DNA of 18,789 nt from Moorena sp. SIO3B2 (GCF_010692525.1 NZ_JAAHHE010000120.1:1-18789); one strand, 5' to 3'. Numbered from the stretch's first letter, positions 20 to 18,271 are shown. Made by a program: numbers and translations. Notes: generated by a model from the letters alone, not told the origin.

Positions 20-63
20 GGTGCGCTTTCCGTTGGCGAATTAAATTCGCCACGGGTCGCACC
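20..63. repeat. Copy of the ggtgcg...cgcacc hairpin repeat family; contains the palindrome ggcgaattaaattcgcc
   Basis: Shares gaattaaattcgccacgggtcgcacc with the copy at 14353-14397. Both ends are ggtgcg/cgcacc inverted termini. Confidence 0.5.
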
Positions 64-1802: not shown

Positions 1803-3860
1803 GTGGAAAAGGGAACACTAATCGAATTTCGCTTACAAGGAGAACGCCATCTCGCTGTTGTCGATCGTCCAGAGGGCAAGAACCACTTGATTGCTTTGGA
1901 TCAACGGGGGAAACTGCACAAGCTCCATCCTCGACAAGTCACCTACACAGTGGCAGATTCTACTTATGAGCCATCACAAATACCAGAGTTTATTGCTCGA
2001 GTACAACCCTATCTAGACCCAGATAGCTTAGAATTAGCTTGGGAATTACTGGTGGAAGAAGGAGAGGCGGTTACCTGTGCTGACATGGCACAGTTATTAT
2101 TTTCTGAGCAAAGTCCACCCCAGTGCTATGCGGCACACTGTATTCTGTTTGAAGACAAAATCTATTTTAAACAAAAAGCACAAACCTATGAACCCCGCTC
2201 CGCTAGCATGGTGGCTGAAATCAAGCATCAACTGGCAGCGGCTCAATCAAAGCACCAGGAACAAGAAGAATTTTTGAAGCGAGTACAGCAAAAGTTAGGG
2301 GGTGAGCAAGTAGAGTGGGTTGATAGCGATCGCACTCGCTTTGATGCTCTAGAACGGTTCGTTAGTGAACCAGATAAACCATCTCGTGCAGTTCAGGAAA
2401 CTCTGGAAGCACTAAAACGCCCTCAAAACCCAGAAAATGCCTTCGATTTATTGATAAATTTGGGTTTGTGGCGTCCTCACCAGAAGTACTTGCTGCGTCA
2501 TAAAATCCCAACTCAATTTCGTCGTGAGGTACTCGAATTGACCCAGCAATACCTGGCAAATCCTCCTACTGACCCAGATTCAGATCGCTTGGATTTAACT
2601 CATCTGAAACTCTACACCATAGATGATGAAAGTACCCAAGAAATAGATGATGGTTTGAGTATAGAAGATCTAGAGGATGGCACTCAGCGTCTGTGGATTC
2701 ACATCGCTGACCCAACCCGCTTGGTAATGCCAGGGGATAATCTTGACCTAGAAGCACGACGGCGTAGTACCACCATATATCTACCCACGGGCATGATTCC
2801 CATGTTCCCATCGGAACTGGCAACTGGTCCAATGAGTTTGGTTCAAGGTCAAGTCTGTGGCGCACTCAGTTTTGGCGTGATCTTGGATCAAGATGGTGCC
2901 ATCTATGACTATCAGATTCACCCCAGCCTGATTAAACCCACCTATCGCCTGACTTATGAAGATGTAGATGAAATGTTGCAGTTAGGGGTACAGGCAGAAA
3001 CAGAACTGTTTGCGATCGCTAACTTGGCTGTGCGTCGGCAAAAGTGGCGCAAGTCTCAGGGGGCGATTAGCATCCATATGCCAGAGTCGGTAATCAAGGT
3101 GGGAAATGATGACCAAATTACCATTGAGGTGTTAGAAGATTCACCATCACGGCAAATGGTGGCAGAAATGATGATTCTGGCAGGTGAAGTGGCTGGACGC
3201 TATGGTCAAGCGCACCAAATTCCACTACCATTCCGAGGACAACCCCAGCCAGAACTTCCATCCCAAGAAGAACTGCTGCTATTGCCAGCCGGTCCAGTGC
3301 GGTTCTGTGCCATGCGTCGGTGTATGCCTAGAAGCGAAATGAGCATTACCCCAACACGCCACGCTAGTTTGGCTTTGGAAACTTACACCCAGGTAACCTC
3401 TCCGATCCGCCGCTACACTGACTTAATGACTCATTTCCAGCTGAAAGCTCATCTACGGGGTGACCCCCTACCCTTTGAAGCTGAAGATTTGCTCGAAACG
3501 ATGCAGAGTGTAACCAGAACAGCTAAGGATGCTAGTGAAGTAGAACGTGATACCAACAAATATTGGGGATTGGAATATTTGCGGCGTAACCCGAATCAGG
3601 TTTGGCAAGTATTAGTACTCAGTTGGTGGCGAGAAAACGAGAATAAGGGCAACATTCTCCTAGAAGAGTTAGGTCTAGAATTGCCCATGCGTTTCCAGCG
3701 TTCGGTTCAATTAGGCGATCGCTTACACGTCAAAGTCAGTCATGCTGATCCCCGTAAAGAAGTTATTCATTTTCAAGAACTAGCGAACTCAGAGGCTCAG
3801 CTTCCTTTTAACTCAAAGCTAGAAGATGGCTCAGCTTCTGCTGTGAACAGATTCGCGTAA
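1803..3860 (+). CDS. rnb: RNB-family 3'-5' exoribonuclease (RNase II / RNase R-like), GTG start
   Basis: 685 aa. RNB catalytic-region motif YTIDDESTQEIDDGLSIE. A 2-kb uninterrupted ORF. Position downstream of rpmG-rpsR is typical in cyanobacteria. The track 'M' at 1803 is a GTG codon. Confidence 0.85.
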   Translation: MEKGTLIEFRLQGERHLAVVDRPEGKNHLIALDQRGKLHKLHPRQVTYTVADSTYEPSQIPEFIARVQPYLDPDSLELAWELLVEEGEAVTCADMAQLLFSEQSPPQCYAAHCILFEDKIYFKQKAQTYEPRSASMVAEIKHQLAAAQSKHQEQEEFLKRVQQKLGGEQVEWVDSDRTRFDALERFVSEPDKPSRAVQETLEALKRPQNPENAFDLLINLGLWRPHQKYLLRHKIPTQFRREVLELTQQYLANPPTDPDSDRLDLTHLKLYTIDDESTQEIDDGLSIEDLEDGTQRLWIHIADPTRLVMPGDNLDLEARRRSTTIYLPTGMIPMFPSELATGPMSLVQGQVCGALSFGVILDQDGAIYDYQIHPSLIKPTYRLTYEDVDEMLQLGVQAETELFAIANLAVRRQKWRKSQGAISIHMPESVIKVGNDDQITIEVLEDSPSRQMVAEMMILAGEVAGRYGQAHQIPLPFRGQPQPELPSQEELLLLPAGPVRFCAMRRCMPRSEMSITPTRHASLALETYTQVTSPIRRYTDLMTHFQLKAHLRGDPLPFEAEDLLETMQSVTRTAKDASEVERDTNKYWGLEYLRRNPNQVWQVLVLSWWRENENKGNILLEELGLELPMRFQRSVQLGDRLHVKVSHADPRKEVIHFQELANSEAQLPFNSKLEDGSASAVNRFA

Positions 3861-4022
3861 ATCTCTGTCCTTTTATAAAAATCCCCCAAAGCCGAAAACC
3901 CCGTGTCTAATGACCGGGGATGAAGGCTCACAGCGGCTTGACGCGCCTAGAAAAATATTTCAGGAAAATCCGGAATTTTAGTCTGGATGTTGTAAAATAA
4001 GGGAGTGAACAGTTTAGGTCCC

Positions 4023-4118
4023 AGACGAAACCTTAGAATAGGGTCGCCTTTATGGTTTGTCGGCTATGGAAAAAGGGTTAAAACTGTTGTTATAAGGCGA
4101 CCCTATTCTTACGGTAAC
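4023..4118. repeat. ~96-bp palindromic hairpin element (PATE/MITE-like), copy A. It has a perfect 14-bp stem agaatagggtcgcc/ggcgaccctattct around a ~47-nt loop
   Basis: The loop is near-identical to copy B at 4906-5003. It lies 13 nt upstream of the tnpB ATG. Confidence 0.8.
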
Positions 4119-4130
4119 TTTAAGAAGCTG

Positions 4131-5477
4131 ATGATCATTTTAGAGTTCAAGGCGAAAGGAAAAAAACATCAATACTCTGGGATCAACGAGGCTATCCGGA
4201 CAGTCCAGTTCATCCGTAATAGCTGCCTCAGGTATTGGATGGAAAATAAAGGGGTCAACAAATTTGACCTTAATAAGTACAGTGCAGTCCTTGCTAAAAA
4301 CTTTCCTTTTGCTAATGAATTAAACTCTACTGCTCGTCAGTCTAGTGCTGAAAGAGCATGGTCATCAATTGTTCGATTCTTTGATAACTGCAAGAAAAAA
4401 GTACCTGGAAAGAAAGGTTTTCCTAAGTTCCAGAAAAACTGCCGCTCAGTGGAGTATAAACAGTCTGGATGGAAGTTATCCCCTGACAAGAAGTCAATCA
4501 CCTTTAGTGATAAAAAGGGTATTGGGAAGCTTAAGCTTAAAGGTACATGGGACTTGTGGCGCTTGGATAAAAAGGAAATAAAGCGAGTCCGTATAGTTCG
4601 CCGGGCTGATGGTTATTATGTCCAGTTTTGTGTTTCAGTTGATATCAAAGAGGAACTAGAGCCAAGTGGGACAGCTATCGGCTTGGATGTTGGACTAAAA
4701 TATTTTTACACTGATTCCGCTGGAAAAACTGAACCAAATCCCTGCTTTTACAGAACGGTAGAAAAACGCCTTAAGTTCTACCAGCGTCGAGTTTCTCGCA
4801 AGAAGAAAGGCTCATCCAATCGAAATAAAGCAGTTAATAGACTAGGCAGACAGCACCTTAAGATAAGTAGGCAACGTGAAGAGAACGCCAAGAGACTGGG
4901 AACGAAGTTACCGTAAGAATAAAGAAGCCTTTATGGTTAGTCGGCTATGCATAAAAGGGTTAAATCTTTGTTATTAAGGCTTCTTTATTCTAAGGTTTCG
5001 TCTCCGGCGCGCTGCGTAATCTGTTCTAACGATCTGGTCGCCTAGGTCGACTTAAGAGCCAAGAACCTAGTAAAAAATCACTGCCTCGCTAAGTCTATTA
5101 ATGATGCAGGTTGGTATCAGTTTAGGAAATGGATGGAGCACTTTGGCACCAAGTTCGGAAAGGTAACAGTTGCAGTAAATCCTGCATATACCAGCCAAAA
5201 CTGTTCCAATTGTGGCGAAGAAGTTAAAAAGTCCCTATCAACTAGGACTCATACGTGCAAGTGTGGTTGTCAGTTAGATAGAGACCACAACGCCGCAATA
5301 AACATCCTTAAGAAAGCCTTGGGTACGGTGGGGCACACCGGAACCTGGATCTTAAAAGATCTAAACGCTTCAGGAGAATCGGCCTCTACTGTTCTTGGTT
5401 CCGGCCAGGTTCAGCAAGCTGGCTCGTTGAATGAAGAATCCCCGCGTATGCGCGACCGGGGAGTGTCAAAAAACTAG
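4131..5477 (+). pseudogene. tnpB: tnpB (IS200/IS605 OrfB, RuvC-like nuclease), disrupted
   Basis: N-part MIILEFKAKGKKHQYSGINEAIRTVQFIRNSCLRYWMEN...AIGLDVGLKYFYTDSAG (RuvC-I). C-part FGTKFGKVTVAVNPAYTSQNCSNCGE...CKCGCQLDRDHNAAINI (Zn finger plus RuvC-III). The reading frame is broken by the 96-nt hairpin insert (stop at 4914) and by an in-frame TAG at 5043. Confidence 0.85.
4906..5003. repeat. ~96-bp palindromic hairpin element, copy B, inserted inside tnpB. It has a perfect 14-bp stem agaataaagaagcc/ggcttctttattct
   Basis: Insert between codons KLP (4911) and ARCVI (5007). Its length is a multiple of 3 but it carries a stop. The loop is co-linear with copy A. Confidence 0.8.
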
Positions 5478-5490
5478 AAAGCTTGCTTTG

Positions 5491-7065
5491 ATGTCTCGAC
5501 ATAAGTACAAGAGATTAAAACACCAAATCATCCGGGTACCGAGCCGTTGGTACTTCTGCCTATCTTTGGCTATTACCATCCTGCTGGGATGGCTTGGTGT
5601 AGCAGTAGCACAAGATAGTAACACGAATAATTTCACTAACCTGTCTACTATCTGGTTGTTAGTTTCATCTTTTCTAGTCTTTTTTATGAATGCTGGCTTT
5701 GCCATGTTAGAAGCCGGGTTATGTAGACGGAGAAATGCGACTAATGTCTTGGCTAAAAATTTGATAGTTTTCTGTATATCAGCCTTAGCCTTTTGGCTAG
5801 TTGGCTTTGGCTTAATGTTTGGTGATGGCATCACTTACAGTTGTGTTCCAGGAGAAAATAATAGTTTAAGTTTAGTGGGTCAAAAGGGGTTGTTTTTTAA
5901 TCTTCCCTTTCCCCAATTTGGAAATCTTGGTTTTCCAGAATCAGGATTTAATTGTCTCAATCAAGATTGGTCTAATCGCTCCTTTGCGGCTCTATTTTTA
6001 TTTCAGTTAGTCTTTGCTGGAACTGCAGCCACTATTGTTTCAGGAGCTGTTGCTGAACGGGTAAAATTCTGGGCATTTCTCCTATTTAGTTTTTTCCTGG
6101 TTGGTTTTATCTATCCCGTAACCGGTCACTGGGTTTGGGGACACTATGGTTGGCTAGCCAAGGCGCTAAAATTTCATGATTTTGCGGGTTCAACTGTAGT
6201 CCATAGTGTTGGTGGTATGGCTGGCTTGGTAGGGGCTTGGCTACTAAAGCCACGACAAGGTCGTTTTGGCTACAATTTAAGAACAGATAGATATGAAGGT
6301 CTCGAAACTGAAAAGTTCTCTGCCGATAATCTGGGTTTAGCCACCTTAGGCTGCTTAATTCTTTGGCTGGGCTGGTTTGGTTTTAATGGTGGCTCAGCAA
6401 AGGATCTCGATTATGTAGCTAATACCATCACAACTACCATGATGGCAGCAGCAGCTGGTGGAATATCCAGCGTATTTTTTAGTCCAATTATCCTGGGAAA
6501 ACCCAGTCTAGCCTCAATTATCAATGGCATTTTAGGTGGGTTGGTGGGAATTACAGCCTCAGCTGCTTTTGTAGATATCAAAAGTGCATTTATAATTGGC
6601 TCTATCAGCGGTATTTTTGTCCTTTTAGGCGAATATTTTCTACAAGTTTGGAAAATTGACGACCCCGTAGGTTCGATTCCTGTTCACCTTTTCTGTGGAT
6701 TTTGGGGAACGATTGCCTTAGGAATCTTTAGTAGCAATAGTTCTCTGTTGTACTCGGAACTTGATGTATATGACGATCCATTATTACAAGTGTTGTGTCA
6801 GTTCTTAGGCTGGCTGATTATTATCATTGTAACAGCTCTATTGAGTTTATTAGGTTGGCTATTAGTTAGCCTAATTTTATATTATGCAAGCCATATCAAT
6901 GAGCGGATTAGCGGCAAACAACGCCATAGGAAACAATTACGTCAAACCCAATATTTTCAATTGGGAGAATTTATCTTAACTATTTTTGAAATTGCTCGTC
7001 GAGGAATTAGGGTATCTTTGGAAGAAGAAATCAGTGGTAGCGATGGAGTTTTTTATAATCCTTAG
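5491..7065 (+). CDS. amt: Ammonium transporter (Amt/MEP family)
   Basis: FFMNAGFAMLEAG, the signature GWFGFNGGS, VHLFCGFWGTIALGIF, about 11 TM segments and an N-terminal signal-like region. Start set at the ATG at 5491. The track ORF began at an upstream alternative codon, 5431. Confidence 0.9.
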   Translation: MSRHKYKRLKHQIIRVPSRWYFCLSLAITILLGWLGVAVAQDSNTNNFTNLSTIWLLVSSFLVFFMNAGFAMLEAGLCRRRNATNVLAKNLIVFCISALAFWLVGFGLMFGDGITYSCVPGENNSLSLVGQKGLFFNLPFPQFGNLGFPESGFNCLNQDWSNRSFAALFLFQLVFAGTAATIVSGAVAERVKFWAFLLFSFFLVGFIYPVTGHWVWGHYGWLAKALKFHDFAGSTVVHSVGGMAGLVGAWLLKPRQGRFGYNLRTDRYEGLETEKFSADNLGLATLGCLILWLGWFGFNGGSAKDLDYVANTITTTMMAAAAGGISSVFFSPIILGKPSLASIINGILGGLVGITASAAFVDIKSAFIIGSISGIFVLLGEYFLQVWKIDDPVGSIPVHLFCGFWGTIALGIFSSNSSLLYSELDVYDDPLLQVLCQFLGWLIIIIVTALLSLLGWLLVSLILYYASHINERISGKQRHRKQLRQTQYFQLGEFILTIFEIARRGIRVSLEEEISGSDGVFYNP

Positions 7066-10214: not shown

Positions 10215-10336
10215 AGGTGCGACCCGTTCGCGTAGCGTTGGCAAAGCCAATAGGTGCGACCCAAGGGCGATTTATTCGCCCTTGGAGGCGCGCACCAATA
10301 GGTGCGAATTTAATTCTTAATGGGTCAAGCGCACCT
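10215..10336. repeat. Cluster of three (a)ggtgcga-type units. The third unit, 10301-10335, is the reverse complement of the copy at 14353-14397. The second unit contains the palindrome aagggcgatttattcgccctt
   Basis: The string ggtgcgaatttaattcttaatgggtcaagcgcacc reverse-complements to ggtgcgcttgacccattaagaattaaattcgcacc, which matches 14353-14397 apart from a 9-nt indel. Confidence 0.7.
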
Positions 10337-10681
10337 AAGGCAGTTATAAGGACATACTGCTTAGTACTACTTGCCTCTACACCCTAGTTAACGTTATACT
10401 TATCTAAGGCTAAACATTTGGCTCAAGCCTATAACAAAAAGTATTATATTTCTATGTCAGGGCAGCTCTATTTAGTTAACGTAACAAAAATTATTAAAAT
10501 TTAATCCCTACTTATAGGCATCAACTGAGCCATGCTCTTAGCAACTTAGACCATCGGAAATGAAAAATAAATTACTTAACTTGAAAAAAAGTAATATATG
10601 ATACATTTTGATGGTAAGTTTAATGAAGATTTCAAAAACCATTAGCAATCTGTAAAGATTCGGCAAAGTCTATCAGAAGTG

Positions 10682-10706
10682 GTATGGAATTAGCGAAATT
10701 CCATAC
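10682..10706. promoter_or_regulatory. Perfect 10-bp inverted repeat gtatggaatt-N5-aattccatac, a candidate operator upstream of the STAS gene
   Basis: The palindrome lies 60-85 nt upstream of ATG 10766. An SD-like gaggag sits 7 nt before the ATG. Confidence 0.4.
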
Positions 10707-10765
10707 TATCTTCAATATATTCTCTATAAAATTTTATTGGATTTGACCAAGTGAGGAGTCTACTC

Positions 10766-11098
10766 ATGACACAGGCGACCCTGAGTGCAAAATTAAGAAT
10801 TATTCAACCTTCCGGTCATATTAACGCTTCTAATGCAATTGAGTTTAAAAGTCAGTTGACAGAAGCTGTGGTGGCTGCTGAGGATTCGGCTTTGTTGGTT
10901 GATATGCATCAGTTAGAGTCTCTCGACAGTGCTGGCTTAATGGCCTTAATTCATGGTCTGAAGCTAGCAAGAAGTCTAGAGAGGCGCTTTGGTCTTTGCT
11001 CCGTAGCTCCTTCAATTCGAATTATGCTGGAGCTAACTAAATTAGATGGGGTGTTTGAGATTTTTGACAGCCATGAGGCTTTTGCTACAGCCCTCTAG
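10766..11098 (+). CDS. STAS-domain protein (SpoIIAA-like anti-sigma-factor antagonist)
   Basis: 110 aa from the ATG with a GAGGAG ribosome-binding site. Sequence ...LVDMHQLESLDSAGLMALIHGLKLARS... is typical of STAS. The track start at 10751 is a GTG upstream of the SD. Confidence 0.8.
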   Translation: MTQATLSAKLRIIQPSGHINASNAIEFKSQLTEAVVAAEDSALLVDMHQLESLDSAGLMALIHGLKLARSLERRFGLCSVAPSIRIMLELTKLDGVFEIFDSHEAFATAL

Positions 11099-11344
11099 GG
11101 GGTTGGAGTAGGTTGGGAAGCTAACTCAATGGCTCTGAGTGCAGCAAAATCATAGGAAATCTTGGGAAGATTAAGTGCTTACAGCGATGATGATGGGAGG
11201 AGATAGGGAAATACCAGTTAAGAAGTATGGTGGTTATTATCTCCCTCACTTCATCCACCTTCACCCCCTTATCTCTAGCCTGAGTACTGATAAAATCAAA
11301 GGTGGATCAGGGTTAACTGCATTGAAAGCAGTAATAAAGTTTCT

Positions 11345-14245
11345 ATGGCAATCACTGTAGAGGAAATATTAACACCAGACATCAACAGACCAGCCCGTTA
11401 CTTAGGTAACGAGTTGGGAGCAGTCCATAAACCTTGGGAAGAAGCTGAGGTACGCTGGGTATTGACTTATCCAGAAATCTATGAAGTGGGGGCTTCTAAC
11501 TTAGGCCATATCATCCTCTACAATATATTGAATTATCAACCTAGGCAATTATGCGATCGCGCCTATCTACCTGCCCCAGACTTGGCAGCTAAATTACGTT
11601 CCACTCAAACCCCTCTGTTTGCTGTCGAGAATCGGCGACCTCTGAAAGATTTTGATATTATTGGCTTTAGCCTTAGCTATGAATTAGGGGCAACCAACAT
11701 CTTGGAAATGTTGGATTTGGGAGGAATTCCCCTGACCTGGAAAGACCGTGCTCAGTTTGATATATCGGAAATACCCCTAATTTTTGCAGGTGGACAAACG
11801 GCGACATCGAATCCTGAACCCTATGCTGATTTCTTAGATTTTGTTGATCTTGGCGATGGGGAAGAATTGTTGCCAGAGATTGGCTTAGTAATCGAAGAAG
11901 GCAAAGCAGCTGGCTTAAGTCGAGAAGCGTTACTCCTGGATTTGGCTCAGATACCAGGGGTGTATGTCCCCCAATTCTATGATATGACTGAGGATGGCTC
12001 AGTTAAACCCAACCGCCCTGATGTGCCGAAGCGGATTTTGCGGCGTGTGGCTACACCGATGCCTGCCTATGCTATTGGACTAGTACCCTATATCCAAACG
12101 GTTCATGACCGACTCAAGATCGAAGTGCGACGGGGCTGTACTCGGGGTTGTCGCTTCTGCCAACCTGGGATGCTGACTCGACCAGCGCGGGATGTGGAAC
12201 CAGAAAAAGTGGTGGAAGCTATTGAACAAGGGATGCGTGCTACAGGGTATAACGAGTTTTCCCTTCTATCCCTGAGTTGTTCGGATTACCTGGCTCTACC
12301 AGCGGTGGGGATGGAAATCAAAAATCGTCTTAAGGATCAGAATATTTCCTTGTCCCTACCGAGTCAGCGGGTAGACCGCTTTGATGAGAATATTGCCAAT
12401 ATCCTAGGGGGCAATCGGCAGAGTGGCTTGACCTTTGCCCCAGAAGCAGGAACTCAGCGGATGCGGGATATTGTTAATAAGGGACTGACTAATGAAGAAC
12501 TGCTCAGGGGAGTAAAGACGGCATTTGAGCAAGGCTGGGAGAAAGTCAAGCTCTATTTTATGATTGGTTTGCCCGGTGAAACGGATATGGATGTGTTGGG
12601 GATTGCGGAAACGGTGCGTTGGTTGCAGCAGGAGTGCCGTGCTAAAGGCAGAAAAACCATTAAGTTTAACATAACTGTTTCTAATTTTACCCCAAAACCT
12701 CACACCCCATTCCAGTGGCATTCCGTATCGACTTCGGAGTTTGAACGCAAGCAGGAATTACTCAAACAAGTATTTGGTCAGATCAGGGGGGTGAAGGTTA
12801 ATTACACCGATGTTCGGATTTCGGCCATGGAAGATTTCGTGGGACGGGGTGACAGACGCTTAAGTGCGGTGGTGCGCCGTGCTTGGGAATTGGGGGCAGG
12901 GATGGACTCCTGGATGGAAAGCTTGGATCGGGCATTTGCTGCTTGGGAAAATGCGATCGCTTCATCAGGTCTGACCTGGAAATATCGCCAAGTAGAAAAT
13001 GGCGAATGGAACGTGATGGCGGGTGTAGAAGAGTTGCAAGTTGGAAGGTTGTTCGCGAAGCGTGGCCAAAAGGCCAAGGTTGAAAGTTCAGAGCAACCAG
13101 CTAACCTACAACCAGCTAACCTACAACCAACTAACCGACAACCAACTAACCGACAACCAACTAACCTTCAACCAGCTAACCTTCAACCAACTAACCTTCA
13201 ACCAACTAACCTTCAACCTTCTAACCTTCAACCTTCTAACCTTCAACCTTCTAACCTTCAACCTTCTAACCTTCAACCAGCTAACCTTCAACCAGCTAAC
13301 CTTCAACCGTCAACCCTTAACGCCCTTGATGCTCCCTTGCCTTGGGATCATATTGATACGGGAATTGATAAGAATTGGCTCAAGGAAGATTTACAACGGG
13401 CGTTAGATGCAGCAACGGTACCGGATTGTTCCTTTGATGGGTGTTCTCACTGTGGTGTGTGTGGGATTGATTTTGGTCATAATGTGGTGATTGACCCGCC
13501 ACAGATTCCGCAATTTGCTGGTCACTTTAAACCCAATACTAATAAGGATCAGCGGCTGCGGGTTTGGTTTGGAAAGTTGGGGGATATGACCTTGTTGGGT
13601 CATCTGGATTTGGCAAGTCTGTTTGAGAGAGCAGTAAGACGGGCGTCACTGCCAATTCGATATAGTGGGGGGTTTCGGGCTAATGCTCGGATTATGATTG
13701 CTAATGCGTTGCCCTTGGGAGCGTCTAGCAGTGGGGAGATTGTGGAGTTTGAGTTAACTGAGAAAATGCCAGTTGAGGAGTTTAGGGAAAGGCTGGTGTC
13801 TCAGTTGCCTGAAGAGATTCCGGTGTATGGGGTTGAAGCAGTGGATTTGAAGGAACCTGCGGGAACTCAGCTGTTGGAGAGAGCTGAGTATTTGATTCGA
13901 GTTGAGGTAATATCAGAAGCGTCTTGGGAAGAGTGGCAGGGTTGGATTGAAGCAATCAAAGGTAGTAAGGAAATTTGGTGGGAGCGGTTTACGAAGTCGG
14001 GGAAGAAGCAGTGGGTGAATTTATGCGATCGCTTATTTGACTTCGAGGTGATCGAACCCCAAAAATCCAAAGATGGTGAAGAGGAGGTTGCGGAGTCTGG
14101 GGTGGTTTTGCGGTATGTGGGGAGTTGTTTGAATGATGGCACGATGTTGCGACCAGAGCACATTATTTATATGTTGGAGCAGGTGGCGCAGCGGGAGTTT
14201 CGTTTGTTGCATGTTCATCGGCAACGGTTGATTCTGCGCAATTGA
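11345..14245 (+). CDS. Radical SAM protein (B12-binding-domain type, TIGR03960-like) fused to a C-terminal DUF2344-like domain, with a repeat-expanded linker
   Basis: 966 aa. It has the CxxxCxxC cluster RGCTRGCRFCQPGM. The N-terminus PARYLGNELGAVHKPW is typical of this rSAM family. The C-terminal ~270 aa after the repeats resemble DUF2344. Confidence 0.9.
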   Translation: MAITVEEILTPDINRPARYLGNELGAVHKPWEEAEVRWVLTYPEIYEVGASNLGHIILYNILNYQPRQLCDRAYLPAPDLAAKLRSTQTPLFAVENRRPLKDFDIIGFSLSYELGATNILEMLDLGGIPLTWKDRAQFDISEIPLIFAGGQTATSNPEPYADFLDFVDLGDGEELLPEIGLVIEEGKAAGLSREALLLDLAQIPGVYVPQFYDMTEDGSVKPNRPDVPKRILRRVATPMPAYAIGLVPYIQTVHDRLKIEVRRGCTRGCRFCQPGMLTRPARDVEPEKVVEAIEQGMRATGYNEFSLLSLSCSDYLALPAVGMEIKNRLKDQNISLSLPSQRVDRFDENIANILGGNRQSGLTFAPEAGTQRMRDIVNKGLTNEELLRGVKTAFEQGWEKVKLYFMIGLPGETDMDVLGIAETVRWLQQECRAKGRKTIKFNITVSNFTPKPHTPFQWHSVSTSEFERKQELLKQVFGQIRGVKVNYTDVRISAMEDFVGRGDRRLSAVVRRAWELGAGMDSWMESLDRAFAAWENAIASSGLTWKYRQVENGEWNVMAGVEELQVGRLFAKRGQKAKVESSEQPANLQPANLQPTNRQPTNRQPTNLQPANLQPTNLQPTNLQPSNLQPSNLQPSNLQPSNLQPANLQPANLQPSTLNALDAPLPWDHIDTGIDKNWLKEDLQRALDAATVPDCSFDGCSHCGVCGIDFGHNVVIDPPQIPQFAGHFKPNTNKDQRLRVWFGKLGDMTLLGHLDLASLFERAVRRASLPIRYSGGFRANARIMIANALPLGASSSGEIVEFELTEKMPVEEFRERLVSQLPEEIPVYGVEAVDLKEPAGTQLLERAEYLIRVEVISEASWEEWQGWIEAIKGSKEIWWERFTKSGKKQWVNLCDRLFDFEVIEPQKSKDGEEEVAESGVVLRYVGSCLNDGTMLRPEHIIYMLEQVAQREFRLLHVHRQRLILRN
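13094..13319 (+). repeat. 15 in-frame tandem copies of a 15-nt unit (caaccagctaacctt and variants), encoding (P[AST]N[LR]Q)x15 inside the rSAM gene
   Basis: Read directly. Unit variants are ..gct/act/tct.. and ..cta/cga/ctt... The repeat generates spurious ORFs on other frames (13041-13406 + and 13121-13306 -). Confidence 0.95.
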
Positions 14246-14352
14246 GAAATTTGGCGTTGCTGAATTAAGGTATGATTGGCTAAAAATGTGGCGTTGCTGA
14301 ATCAATCAATGAATATGAGTGGGGTGGACATCCTGCCTGCCCAAAAAGATCC

Positions 14353-14397
14353 GGTGCGCTTGACCCATTAAGAATTAAATTCGCCACGGGTCGCACC
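14353..14397. repeat. ggtgcg...cgcacc hairpin repeat copy, inverted relative to the 10301-10335 copy
   Basis: See 10215-10336. It shares its 3' half with the copy at 20-63. Confidence 0.7.
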
Positions 14398-14588
14398 GTC
14401 AGGAACGGGCAAGATGCCCATTCCACAAAACTATTCAAATCATTCCATTATTAAGCAACGCCTCAAAGAATGGTCTAAGGAAAAGAAAATCACTGCTTTG
14501 ATAAGGAAAGCCAATGGTACGGGAGTAATCAAAATTAGCCATTACCCATTACCAATAATTATCTTCTCACTGAGCTGGATTGATCTAG

Positions 14589-15458
14589 CTAACAATTATT
14601 ATTTTTAATCCTGCCATTAGGCATAATAGTGTTACAGAAAATAGCATCATTTAAGTCAGCCTTAGCTAATTTAGCCTTTTTAAGATTAGCATGGCTGAAA
14701 TTAGCCTCACTCAAATCAGCATCATGAAAGTCAACACCTTCTAAATTGGCATAACTTAGGTTGGCGGCTCTCAAGTCAGTATTATACAGTCTTGCACCAC
14801 TCAAATTAGCATGACTAAGGTTAGCGCCACACAGTTCTTCATAACCTAGGTTGACATTTTTCAAGTCTAAACCGCTTAAGTCAGCCTCGGCACAAATAAA
14901 GATTGCTCCGGCTTTTGATGGGTTAAATCCAGTCGGAAACTCAGTGTATGACGTATAGATAGCTTTGGTAAAATTTATACTACTCAGGTCAGCTTTTTTC
15001 CAGCCATCAACCCCTAGCATACGGGCATAACTGAGGTTAGCATTGCTCAGGTCAGAATCACCTACGTAAACCTCACATAAGGTAGCATAACTAAAATTGG
15101 CATCCCTGAGCTTACTAGTAGCTATATAGATTACAGATAAATCCGCATAACTCAGATCAGTACCACTAAAATCACAGTTTTCCAAGGTTGATTCAGAGGC
15201 TACTATATGACTCAAGTTAGCCTTAGTAAGGTTAGAATTTTCGATAGTGGTTTCGTATAGGTAAGCATTCCTCAAGTTAGCATGACTTAGATCTACATCA
15301 TCCCAAGTAGCTTCCTCTAAATCAGCATTACTCAAGTCCGCATTTTTTAGACAAACACCCTTGAAATTAGTACTTTTTAAGTTAGCCTTTTTCAAATTAA
15401 TACCAGAAAAATCTCTTTCACCGGCTTCGTAGCGTTTTAGGAAGTCATCACGATTCAT
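14589..15458 (-). CDS. Pentapeptide-repeat protein
   Basis: 289 aa. Continuous A(D/N)LSxANLxxA-type pentapeptide units run throughout. Confidence 0.9.
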   Translation of the reverse strand: MNRDDFLKRYEAGERDFSGINLKKANLKSTNFKGVCLKNADLSNADLEEATWDDVDLSHANLRNAYLYETTIENSNLTKANLSHIVASESTLENCDFSGTDLSYADLSVIYIATSKLRDANFSYATLCEVYVGDSDLSNANLSYARMLGVDGWKKADLSSINFTKAIYTSYTEFPTGFNPSKAGAIFICAEADLSGLDLKNVNLGYEELCGANLSHANLSGARLYNTDLRAANLSYANLEGVDFHDADLSEANFSHANLKKAKLAKADLNDAIFCNTIMPNGRIKNNNC

Positions 15459-16109: not shown

Positions 16110-16583
16110 ATGACTACAACTGAGCGTAAAACAGAGAAGAAAATGGAAGTGCCTAGAACAACTAGTGAAGTGATTCGCATCAAGCCCCAACAGTTTATTC
16201 ATGTGCTAGACAACAATACTGGTGTTACGCGACTGGAGGTTGGTCCTCAAACCATTACCCTTCGGGATCACGAGCGGCTGATCTTAAAACCTGAACCGAT
16301 GATTATTGTGCCGCCTCGATATTATTGTGTGGTGGCTAATCCATTACTCCGGGATGAAGACGGTCAACCCATTGCTGATCAGCATGGTCAAATTCGACTG
16401 CGCTACGGTGATCTGGAAATTCGTTTCGCGCAAGATCCGTTTCCCCTTTATCCAAACGAGAAACTGGTAGGGGATTTGACACTCCCCGTTCTTCTAGGAC
16501 GGGGAGTGTCAAAGGCAGAAAATATAGCCATTGAGTCTACAGGTCAGGCAACAGCAGAAGCAAGAGCTAAGGAATACTCTTAA
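16110..16583 (+). pseudogene. Major vault protein (MVP) homolog, N-terminal remnant (repeat domains 1-2) joined to a short cap-helix-like piece and then truncated
   Basis: IRIKPQQFIHVLDNNTGVTRLEVGP, VPPRYYCVVANP and [25 protein letters not shown] match the recalled MVP N-terminus ([25 protein letters not shown] / VPPRHYCTVANP / [25 protein letters not shown]). A full MVP is about 850 aa, so the middle is missing. Confidence 0.75.
16476..16512. repeat. Perfect palindrome ttgacactccccg-N11-cggggagtgtcaa with a 13-bp stem. It carries the same motif as the tnpB right-end hairpin at 5440-5470
   Basis: Read directly. It lies at the point where MVP N-terminal homology ends. Confidence 0.85.
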
Positions 16584-18271
16584 ACCGTCATCAATCGGGA
16601 TAAAACCGAATAAAACGGCCAAGGTGCATTTTATTGATGTCTGAGTGAGGAGCGGTCAAGTAGCAATTGGAGTCAAGCCTCCCGCTCATCTATCTAGACG
16701 TTCCTCACATCCCGGTGAGGAGTTCCTTAAAAGCTTGAGTTTTGGCATGCTTGCGGTCAAGCCATCCTAGCTTAACCGCGTCAGCTAAAGTCAAATCCAT
16801 ACCTTCTAAGAAACGCGCAGTACGACGCAACAATACTGCCTGCACTTCAACCCTAGTCATAAACCGGGAGATTCCTTGATCTGTACCACGAGCAAGGATA
16901 TTCTTCGCAGCATTGTGATCAGCCTGCAACACGACCCCATTAAATCTGATAAAACTGTCCCCAATCCTTGCTCCCAATAAGGTGCCAGAAAAGGAGTCAA
17001 TTTGCGACGTGTAGCTTGGCTGGACTTCTGTCACAACCGAACCAGTCCAATTAGCCCATTTCTGCAAGGAGTACCGCATTTCTCCTTTCATCCAGCTATT
17101 CAACTTGCGAGACATAGCCTTTGACTGGCGTTTATTTTTGATTGGTTGCGTTAAATCCTCAGCAAAAATTCTTAGAGATTCTCCTTTGAAGAGGGATTTA
17201 GAAGCAGCCCCTATAATCGCCCTCAACTCTGATTGATCTCTTCTGTAACGACTGTTTTCTGTTTTTCGACTCAGATTATTTTTCAGTATCCGAGCTGATT
17301 TAGCTGGATCTATTTTTTCTAGCTTCCTATGTATTGCCCAGAGTTTTCCTCTGTTCCGATTTTTGGCGCATATTCGATGGCCAAAAGGCCACGCTACGCG
17401 AACGGATTTTATGGTTGCTATTTTGCCCAGGTTCTTCCCGTGTGCCTGACCATCTGAATCATAAAAAGCCTCGGTGTATCCCTTGTCTACTCCTATCGCT
17501 CGACGTTCAGGAGGAATCTCAGCTGTCCCGTGATTAACCAAAAAATGAATCTCAAATCTTGCCAGTAGAGAGTTGTATATTAGTCTAATCTGTCCTTTAA
17601 TATTTCGATTAGACCTAACTATTAGTTTGTTTCTTTTTCCTCTTCTGATTCCAGCTAATTCCAATTGATAAGTATAACGAGACAATCGTTTACACGAGTA
17701 TCCTCCTTGTTGGTATACAACTTGATTCTTGACCCAATAATGTCCTCTCTGAAACTCTTTCCTTACAAGTCTGTGCAATAGTGGATTATCCAGAAAAGCT
17801 GAAGTTTTGAGTTGCTTAGAGATATCCTTTCTGATCTTCTGGTTTTCCTTTCCAGGAAACCTCTTATAGATCTTTTTTATGACTGCCTCAATGGAAGCCG
17901 CTTGTTGAGCTGTGATAGTTTTAGCTACATCACTGACAGTCCATTCCATTAACTTGGAAGGCAAGCCCAGGGACTCAGGCTTCCTGAAGTCCCTGACTTC
18001 TGGGTAGGCTTTTTTCCAGTCAAGTCCCCAATGACTTATACTACCCAGCTTGTTGTAAGACTCAGACCTGACGACGCCTAGTTTTTTCATCGTAGACAAC
18101 AGCTCAAGCTCAACCGACTTAGCTATCCCTACAACTGGGACGACCTGAGTCGATATCTTCTTTACTGCGCCTACTTTCTTTTGCATCATCAACGGTGTGT
18201 ACAGCTTTTGCTATATACTGCCATTATAGTCTAGCGCTATAAAATTGTCAATGTCCAGTTCGCACTATTAA
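16584..18271 (-). mobile_element. Insertion element carrying a TnpB-like gene, minus orientation. Ends are approximate
   Basis: MVP-like coding sequence stops at 16583 and resumes at 18272. The 3' flank contains the hairpin cctcacatcccggtgagg. Confidence 0.5.
16705..18192 (-). CDS. TnpB-like (IS200/IS605 OrfB-type) RuvC-fold nuclease/transposase-associated protein, 495 aa, without the usual CxxC..CxxC zinc finger
   Basis: RuvC-I AIGVDKGYTEAFYDSDGQ, RuvC-II IFAEDLTQPIKNKRQSKAMSRKLNSW, RuvC-III VVLQADHNAAKNILARG. There are no Cys residues between RuvC-II and RuvC-III. Confidence 0.75.
   Translation of the reverse strand: MMMQKKVGAVKKISTQVVPVVGIAKSVELELLSTMKKLGVVRSESYNKLGSISHWGLDWKKAYPEVRDFRKPESLGLPSKLMEWTVSDVAKTITAQQAASIEAVIKKIYKRFPGKENQKIRKDISKQLKTSAFLDNPLLHRLVRKEFQRGHYWVKNQVVYQQGGYSCKRLSRYTYQLELAGIRRGKRNKLIVRSNRNIKGQIRLIYNSLLARFEIHFLVNHGTAEIPPERRAIGVDKGYTEAFYDSDGQAHGKNLGKIATIKSVRVAWPFGHRICAKNRNRGKLWAIHRKLEKIDPAKSARILKNNLSRKTENSRYRRDQSELRAIIGAASKSLFKGESLRIFAEDLTQPIKNKRQSKAMSRKLNSWMKGEMRYSLQKWANWTGSVVTEVQPSYTSQIDSFSGTLLGARIGDSFIRFNGVVLQADHNAAKNILARGTDQGISRFMTRVEVQAVLLRRTARFLEGMDLTLADAVKLGWLDRKHAKTQAFKELLTGM

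Follow-up and report, generated by a model that had tools for sequence, protein, structure and literature searches.

Hairpin repeats flanking a STAS-radical SAM gene pair in Moorena belong to a dispersed mobile family and most probably bracket it by coincidence

In Moorena sp. SIO3B2, two genes encoding a STAS-domain protein and a B12-binding radical SAM protein (rSAM) lie between inverted copies of a short hairpin repeat that begins with GGTGCG and ends with CGCACC. The arrangement raises the question of whether the repeats define a DNA segment of about 4 kb that can move or invert as a unit, or whether they arrived independently beside genes that stay in place. We addressed this question in a stretch of 18,789 nucleotides (nt) (GCF_010692525.1, NZ_JAAHHE010000120.1:1-18789), referred to here as the window. 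Our analysis indicates that the repeats, which we call units, are a family of 44- to 46-nt nonautonomous mobile hairpin repeats in Moorena, and that their bracketing of the STAS-rSAM pair is very probably a coincidence.

A repeat finder identified a perfect inverted repeat of 32 nt, 100% complementary, at 10304-10335 and 14353-14384, as well as a direct repeat in which 38-63 equals 14372-14397 (26/26 nt). A previous sequence-only reading of the window had recognized both relationships, although it credited the inverted copies (10301-10335 and 14353-14387) with only 23 contiguous matching bases and compared the copy at 20-63 with that at 14353-14397. Inspection of the sequence yielded four units with GGTGCG and CGCACC ends, namely 20-63, 10253-10296, 10301-10335, and 14353-14397. 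The third of these is indeed an inverted copy, but it is not a whole unit. The segment 10216-10227 (GGTGCGACCCGT) joined to 10304-10335 is the reverse complement of 14353-14397 at 44 of 45 nt, and the upstream copy is therefore a complete unit, starting at 10216, that is interrupted by 76 nt (10228-10303). This interruption comprises one copy of a 26-nt repeat unrelated to the units, a whole unit of a second sub-variant, B (10253-10296), and a few linker bases. The inner palindrome ascribed to every unit is found in full only in 20-63 and 10253-10296; the two bracketing copies, which form sub-variant A2, have half of it. On the canonical strand, units start with GGTGCGACCC and end with GCGCACC, so that the complete ones run 63-20, 10253-10296, and 14397-14353 (Table 1). 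All of the window's own units are intergenic. The motif GGTGCG occurs 13 times on the two strands of the window, compared with 3.9 ± 1.9 times in shuffled sequences, and none of 200 shuffles reached 13.

The 26-nt repeat (GTTCGCGWAGCGTGGCCAAAAGGCCA; ~26 nt) represents a second kind of small dispersed repeat and contains a GGCC...GGCC mini-hairpin. Copies are present in the window at 1039-1068, 10226-10250, 13051-13076, and 17378-17403, at 2187-2251 in locus L062, and at 11792-11817 in locus L126; their settings are intergenic DNA, the linker of rSAM, and a TnpB-like open reading frame (ORF).

Units recur elsewhere in the genus. A pattern scan of species-representative genomes, in which the listed matches were mostly chance matches in high-GC genomes, found units in at least 8 Moorena contigs of at least 3 other Moorena genomes. 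The unit at L118:2008-2052 in Moorena sp. SIO3I8 is identical to window 14353-14397 at 45 of 45 nt in an unrelated context, and near-identical B units are present at L035, L062, and L125. The Moorena units have two recurring settings. One is a miniature inverted-repeat transposable element (MITE) of ~175 nt with terminal inverted repeats (TIRs), within which the unit varies in position and occurs in either orientation; related MITE copies in L062, L079, and L002, for example, hold the unit at another position and in the opposite orientation from that in the window. The other setting is beside heptamer tandem repeats. Neighboring units are codirectional (window 10253/10301, L062 5685/5751, and L035 4228/4494), and unit orientation relative to adjacent genes is mixed. 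Units are sparse in sequence that was not chosen for its unit content, which comprises syntenic loci and ~32 kb around one orthologous TnpB locus in several Moorena assemblies; the latter region contains no unit. From a density of ~1 per 20-40 kb, we estimate ~100 or more copies per 8- to 9.6-Mb genome. Outside Moorena, the matches listed came from Okeania, Dapis, Spirulina, Crocosphaera, and other cyanobacteria, and plasmids of Pleurocapsales also hold relatives of the units.

The inverted pair could in principle make the STAS-rSAM segment a mobile or invertible cassette, either as a composite transposon or as a segment inverted by a recombinase or RecA. The sequence-only reading had raised this possibility and had pointed to related strains that might lack the block or carry it inverted. 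We compared eight Moorena strains: the window, L122, L123, JHB, PAL, SIOASIH, L132-L134 (taken as a single strain because they represent one metagenome-derived locus), and L135. All eight have the order rpsR-RNase II-amt-three small ORFs-STAS-rSAM in one and the same orientation, and in none of them is the block inverted, moved, or missing. The place of the gene pair is unchanged even in strains that have no repeat at either site. With 7978 homologs at E<1e-100, rSAM is a core cyanobacterial gene with thousands of orthologs. No transposase, recombinase, or invertase gene was found in or beside the block; the Pfam domains inside it are STAS and radical SAM only, and the neighboring genes encode pentapeptide-repeat and hypothetical proteins. 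The cassette explanation does account for the perfect 32-nt inverted repeat on either side of a 4-kb block, and the region 3' of rSAM is a rearrangement hot spot among the strains. The minimal length for RecA recombination, which is only slightly under 32 bp, counts against it, as do the different origin and age of the two copies, described below. We consider a cassette of this kind extremely unlikely. The core status of rSAM, the fixed synteny, and the separate arrival of the copies instead identify STAS-rSAM as ordinary, vertically inherited core DNA.

The strain patterns at the upstream and downstream sites differ, and the two arms of the inverted repeat therefore have separate histories. 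The upstream site is empty in PAL and L135 (GAAGTTTAGGCAG in L135), contains one simple, uninterrupted unit in SIOASIH, and contains the unit with the nested 76 nt in JHB and the window, the JHB copy being visibly decayed. Units are thus present or missing at orthologous sites between close strains, and they nest in each other and in small repeats. Because the strains are 97-98% identical, with PAL as the outgroup of the four compared (97.3% identity, versus 98.0-98.2% among the others, over 5466 nt), the upstream insertions are recent.

One character at this site follows a different distribution. In the window, the 3' end of the upstream unit (10322-10335) is GGGTCAAGCGCACC, whereas JHB and SIOASIH (L124 and L126) share GGTAAGAGCGCACC. 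This distribution conflicts with that of the nested insertion, common to the window and JHB only. Such a conflict is a hint that another copy, perhaps the inverted one at a distance of 4 kb, donated sequence by gene conversion or that strains recombined.

At the downstream site, interstrain homology breaks off at 14277 and is regained near 14569. In the window's clade, the intervening ~290 nt (14278-14568) are repeat derived and consist of the MITE at 14289-14463 and its unit; this MITE is not present in JHB, PAL, SIOASIH, L132, or L135. Other strains have 3-5 kb at the same junction, encoding an ABC transporter, TerB, an HNH protein, or TnpB. The ABC-transporter/TerB region that other strains have between rSAM and the pentapeptide-repeat gene (compare L135 8806-13680 and L125 12650-17000) has been lost in the window's clade, and the location of the MITE beside a solo copy of its own terminal repeat at the junction suggests a MITE-associated deletion. 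The upstream copy is a direct insertion that was later struck by a second, nested insertion, and the downstream copy hitchhiked inside a MITE at a deletion junction. Since the two flanking copies come from separate events, their inverted arrangement is best regarded as coincidental. That the 32-nt arms are perfectly identical may be due either to gene conversion or to two recent insertions of one sub-variant.

We examined the units for structure. Compared with shuffled controls, the hairpin fold was strongly favored in units 20-63 (z = -5.4), 10253-10296 (z = -7.0), and 14353-14397 (z = -3.2), and the shortened segment 10301-10335 alone folded no better than its controls (z = -1.5). The units could alternatively be functional structured RNAs or cis-elements, such as small RNAs, terminators, mRNA stabilizers, or protein-binding sites, each kept at its site for that role, and not selfish mobile DNA. 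The strong covariation around a conserved internal loop in relatives of the units and the terminator-like appearance of those relatives on the reverse strand, both presented below, are in keeping with this idea. The small-RNA family envisaged in the sequence-only reading found no counterpart in Rfam, however: no family reached the gathering threshold in the window and 12 related loci, and when E-value thresholds were applied to the units, the sole subthreshold match was the generic hairpin mir-5881 (26 bits versus a cutoff of 87 bits). No T-tract follows the hairpin at the window copies. Terminator-like sites in the unit region are no more common than expected by chance (4, versus 5.0 ± 2.6 in shuffles), and the one that touches window units (10291-10306) pairs the ends of two neighboring units. 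The mixed orientation relative to adjacent genes, the empty orthologous sites in sister strains, the decay of old copies such as that of JHB, and the location of many relatives within ORFs likewise argue against function at each site. We therefore regard the functional RNA explanation as improbable and favor a mobile repeat.

Relatives in other cyanobacteria are 51-nt elements of the form GC-GGTGCG-AC-CCC-(variable stem-loop)-GGG-AACG-CGCACC-AAGA(C/G)A. The metagenome copies analyzed here are those among the matches listed of a metagenome pattern scan (at least 120), from which 105 elements, 94 of them distinct, were used. In the 94 distinct copies, 96.7% of cells are paired in the proposed fold, and all slid registers of the fold are at most 55.5% paired. 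Cells with a double change number 238, compared with 88 ± 6 in column shuffles, and none of 500 shuffles reached the observed value. Among the covarying pairs is the one at the base of the middle helix, where a C-G/U-A switch is seen. Further copies in the same loci have compensatory variants of the outer stem, for example, GGTCAG/CTGACC and GGGCAG/CTGCCC. The hairpin fold has been maintained through compensatory changes. MAFFT and RNAalifold applied to mixed Moorena and canonical units detected the outer stem only, because the inner stems were misaligned; equal-length alignments with an explicit structure were used instead. On the reverse strand, the 51-nt relatives present a GC-rich hairpin followed two bases on by a T-rich tract, resembling an intrinsic terminator.

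A covariance model, R1, built from the 105 metagenomic 51-nt elements alone, was used to search 228 kb. It matched window unit 20-63 with 42.6 bits (E = 6e-10; match at 14-67 on the minus strand) and unit 10253-10296 with 30 bits (E = 4e-6). Unit 14353-14397 scored just 11 bits (E = 1.8), because half of its inner stem is lost. No match beyond the pattern-found units was obtained in the 228 kb. As R1 recovers window units, the Moorena units belong to the wider 51-nt family and form a derived branch of it, from which the conserved GC and AAGA(C/G)A ends have been lost. Insertion polymorphism, clean empty sites, nesting, identical 45-mers elsewhere, and recovery by R1 all bear out the small structured repeat family that the sequence-only reading had discerned.

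The 51-nt relatives show how such an element inserts. In the 105 listed copies, flanking sequence is random beyond positions -7 and +6. Positions -2/-1 are GC in 104 copies, position -3 is A in 89, and positions -4 to -7 are 63-67% A. Both ends of the element are exact, and the A-run next to it varies and is native to the target. Copies also sit exactly between the units of heptamer arrays, where a single A precedes, as well as inside other copies, at CAA^GGGAA, and within ORFs. Of 10 long host ORFs tested, 7 proved to be tnpB, and the element occupies seven different positions in them (amino acids 97-337). Among the 121 listed metagenome copies, 20 are in or adjoin tnpB; within the gene, 16 are in the sense orientation and 1 is antisense. 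In-frame sense copies add 17 residues (e.g., RCDP...RERAPR). Loci with tnpB-resident copies include L216, L246, L254, L233, and L234 as well as L139, L158, L184, L191, L204, L206, and L172. In silico removal of exactly 51 nt restores the motif M(V/I)KN(R/H)KLAK in three diverged tnpB genes, so no target sequence was duplicated. These data establish that the 51-nt relatives insert precisely, without target-site duplication, directly after an A and usually after an A-run. Other genes that host relatives in frame encode an IS630-like transposase, an AMP-binding/acyl-coenzyme A dehydrogenase protein, and a plasmid methylase. The last of these, a Stanieria plasmid coding sequence annotated in RefSeq as "DNA adenine methylase" (L256, NC_019749.1 51141-52154), begins with a translated 51-nt element that is itself split by a 45-nt insert at the CAA^GGGAAC hot spot; because this copy is interrupted, the annotated methylase N terminus may be an artifact.

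The association with tnpB could alternatively mean that a TnpB omega-RNA has the hairpin as its native 3' stem-loop, or that the hairpin forms the right end of an IS605 element, with solo copies being remnants of insertion sequences (IS). The sizable tnpB-associated fraction of metagenome copies fits this idea, as does the location of 2 of the first 12 non-Moorena copies 100-170 nt downstream of TnpB zinc-finger/RuvC motifs. In those two loci, nevertheless, the unit splits a stretch that runs unbroken through related TnpB elements (L004 versus L126), and a hairpin of this kind is missing from the 3' ends of the TnpB elements in the window itself. The varied positions inside tnpB and the ORFs restored by excision identify the units as insertions into IS elements rather than parts of them. 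Given the many positions at which TnpB elements are interrupted and the clean in silico excision, we rejected an omega-RNA or IS right-end origin as highly improbable.

How the units move can be proposed only in outline. The unit would move as a single-stranded hairpin, and a trans-acting enzyme, as we infer, would recognize the conserved outer stem and internal loop. Our preferred candidate for this enzyme, put forward tentatively as a possibility rather than a probability, is a Y1/HUH transposase of the IS200/IS605-RAYT type. It is favored because of precise, duplication-free insertion adjacent to a short motif, selection for pairing rather than for sequence, and the 16:1 co-orientation with tnpB of the IS605 family. 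Alternatively, the same hairpin family might spread through RNA, with a short terminator-like transcript (5'-UCUCUU-hairpin-GC-UUUU-3') being reverse transcribed after priming on a nicked A-run of the target. Exact ends next to a variable, target-native A-run are what A-run priming on a U-tail would give, and the richness of these cyanobacteria in reverse transcriptases, exemplified by the group II introns and a diversity-generating retroelement of Trichodesmium (PMC4143802), counts in favor of such a route. Against it, copies between heptamer units are preceded by a single A, Moorena units have no A-run, no reverse transcriptase was linked to the element, and the model is wholly a matter of inference. 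An RNA-mediated route is thus a weaker alternative to the Y1/HUH transposase, and we consider it rather unlikely.

Several observations weigh against the explanation preferred here, a dispersed mobile hairpin with a Y1/HUH transposase as the candidate mover, or limit how far it can be taken. A motif scan of the window and the cyanobacterial loci other than the metagenome loci found no ORF with HUH and Y motifs. The IS200/IS605 TnpA normally requires two different end hairpins, and the element has one. The Moorena units have neither the conserved GC and AAGA(C/G)A ends nor the A-run preference of the 51-nt relatives, so that assigning both a common mechanism is an extrapolation. A 3-nt ambiguity (AGG) persists in the empty-site comparison. 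The nested 76-nt block (10228-10303) has a 13-nt direct repeat (CCAATAGGTGCGA) at its flanks and could be the product of recombination between units instead of a transposition event. Outer-stem invariance in the alignments was imposed by the search patterns, and the genome-wide copy number is an estimate from density rather than a count.

We compared the units with known families of small repeats. Elhai et al. reportedly described, in 2008, the small dispersed repeats (SDRs) of Nostocaceae as very small mobile repeats with a conserved predicted hairpin and compensatory changes, nested in each other, in heptamer tandem repeats, and in mini-transposons. The units share all of these nesting contexts. 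SDRs are 21-27 nt long and are reported from Nostocaceae only (PMC5861425), whereas the units and their relatives are 44-51 nt long and occur in Moorena, Okeania, Dapis, Spirulina, and Crocosphaera and on Pleurocapsales plasmids; the two are set apart by this description of size and taxon. The window's 26-nt repeat (10226-10250 and relatives) is nearer to SDRs in size than the ggtgcg units are.

Repetitive extragenic palindromic (REP) elements and REPINs are mobilized by RAYT (Y1) transposases (PMC3116915, PMC3733652), and one end of a REP element bears an unpaired tag, GTAG or CGTC, that is conserved (PMC3733652). Like these elements, the units are short imperfect palindromes, dispersed and noncoding, with selection on hairpin shape and no autonomous coding capacity, and at 44-46 nt they are slightly longer than typical REPs. 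They differ in having no GTAG/CGTC tag but an A or GC flank followed directly by GGTGCG, and neighboring units are direct repeats, unlike the inverted doublets of REPINs. No RAYT gene was found among the cyanobacterial loci scanned for motifs, and the 51-nt relatives are often inside ORFs, whereas REPs are extragenic. The Rickettsia palindromic elements (RPEs) of Ogata et al. (2000) are said to be selfish palindromic DNA lying in frame in protein-coding genes, as the 51-nt relatives (17 codons) do. RPEs differ in length (100-150 nt) and are unrelated in sequence and host, and the window copies are not in genes. The units resemble cyanobacterial MITEs, such as Nezha (as cited in PMC3733652), in being nonautonomous, structured, and insertion polymorphic, and the carrier at 14289-14463 has TIRs of 23-25 nt. 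The unit itself, however, is far below the 70-300 bp of MITEs, and it ends in the two strands of one hairpin stem, not in TIRs to which a transposase binds. The 51-nt relatives are like IS200/IS605 elements in inserting 3' of a short specific sequence without target duplication. For the Moorena units, this likeness is limited to the lack of a clear target-site duplication, none being detectable in the Moorena empty-site comparison or the 51-nt tnpB excisions; the differences are the single hairpin per unit and the absence of tnpA from the motif-scanned loci. With regard to composite transposons and invertible segments, neither a variable block (eight strains) nor an associated recombinase (Pfam) was found.

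The unit sequence strings had no match in the searchable literature, and a Trichodesmium transcriptome paper contains no description of the element. The units are apparently a new, undescribed member of the very small mobile hairpin repeats, separated from SDRs by description. A more far-reaching interpretation, which we think unlikely, is that they are the local branch of a pan-cyanobacterial 51-nt element that constitutes a distinct minimal class of mobile DNA, with a mechanism beyond the MITE and REPIN models. Such a class would be characterized by a single hairpin in which outer stem and internal loop are conserved and the inner stem covaries freely, and by insertion to the nucleotide, with no target duplication, after A-runs, often in frame and nearly always in the sense orientation, in tnpB of the IS605 family. 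Its single hairpin would hijack a Y1 transposase, or a terminator-like RNA would undergo A-run-primed retro-insertion; in addition, gene conversion may have transferred sequence between the window's two inverted copies.

The gene content of the window was assigned by Pfam (Table 1). Its rSAM protein is encoded residue for residue on contig JAAHIE010000031.1 (GCA_010671945.1), and NCBI lists the protein under unclassified Moorena. The linker of this protein (window 13051-13348) includes an in-frame copy of the 26-nt dispersed repeat, read as FAKRGQKAK, and after it a 15-nt sequence that is repeated ~14 times in tandem and encodes (QPxNL)n; protein length ranges from 882 to 971 amino acids across Moorena strains. 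A tnpB pseudogene (4005-5477) lies between RNase II and amt and is missing in JHB, PAL, and SIOASIH. It consists of an OrfB_IS605 part (4005-4916) and a TNB-domain part (5133-5477) and holds two ~98-nt palindromic elements (4023-4120 and 4905-5003), whose family has no relation to the ggtgcg units. A eukaryotic-type major vault protein homolog (879 amino acids; Vault/MVP_shoulder) is intact in a near-identical strain (L122 14774-17413) and likewise in SIOASIH (L126 17653-20292). At 16110-18192 in the window, just a 157-amino-acid Vault_2 ORF is left of it, followed by a 495-amino-acid TnpB-like gene on the opposite strand, and the JHB homolog has the same type of interruption. Heptamer tandem repeats (AGCTGAT, GAAGGAT, and ACTTCAG) at 949-975, 1143-1169, 1521-1551, and 1681-1712 are located in expanded rpmG-rpsR-RNase II intergenic regions, as is typical of filamentous cyanobacteria; arrays of this sort are targets of hairpin-element insertion at other loci.

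Table 1. Repeat units, associated repeats, and genes of the window
Feature	Position	Strand	Basis or remark
Complete unit, sub-variant A1; canonical strand GGTGCGACCC-GT-GGCGAAT-TTA-ATTCGCC-AACGGAAAG-CGCACC	20-63	-	Hairpin fold; covariance model R1 match; corresponding PAL sequence not homologous at this place
RNase II	1803-3860		Pfam
Split tnpB	4005-4916 + 5133-5477		Pfam
Ammonium transporter (amt)	5431-7065		Pfam
5' part (GGTGCGACCCGT) of interrupted outer A2 unit	10216-10227	+	SIOASIH uninterrupted at orthologous site
Copy of 26-nt dispersed repeat (GTTCGCGTAGCGTTGGCAAAGCCAA), first part of nested 76-nt insertion	10226-10250	+	
Complete unit, sub-variant B, nested in outer unit; GGTGCGACCC-AAGGGCGA-TTTAT-TCGCCCTT-GGAGGCG-CGCACC	10253-10296	+	Hairpin fold; R1 match
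3' part of interrupted outer A2 unit; left arm of 32-nt inverted repeat	10304-10335	+	
STAS-domain protein, 115-amino-acid ORF	10751-11098	+	Pfam; bracketed core gene, not cargo
TIGR03960/DUF2344 B12-binding radical SAM protein (rSAM)	11345-14245	+	Pfam; bracketed core gene, not cargo
Solo TIR-like sequence just 3' of rSAM stop codon	14247-14277	+	Kept in all strains
MITE-like carrier, ~175 nt, TIRs GGCGTTGCTGAATCAATCAATGA / TCATTCCATTATTAAGCAACGCC	14289-14463	none	Window's clade only
Complete A2 unit with right arm of inverted repeat; inside MITE	14353-14397	-	
Pentapeptide-repeat protein	14589-15458	-	Pfam
Major-vault-protein homolog, fragment	16110-16583		Pfam
TnpB-like gene, 495 amino acids	16705-18192	-	Pfam

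These results remove a false lead, in that the inverted repeats flanking STAS-rSAM are not to be read as the borders of a mobile or phase-variable cassette. They document a family of mobile hairpins of extremely small size in Moorena, a genus rich in natural products, and its relatives, whose genomes are large and repeat rich. Among strains that are only 2-3% diverged, the units mark recent insertions and rearrangement junctions. Because relatives are translated inside annotated proteins, the units complicate assembly and gene calling. With exact empty and filled sites, nesting, and hundreds of covarying relatives, they also provide a clean data set on the movement of bacterial repeats of less than 100 nt.

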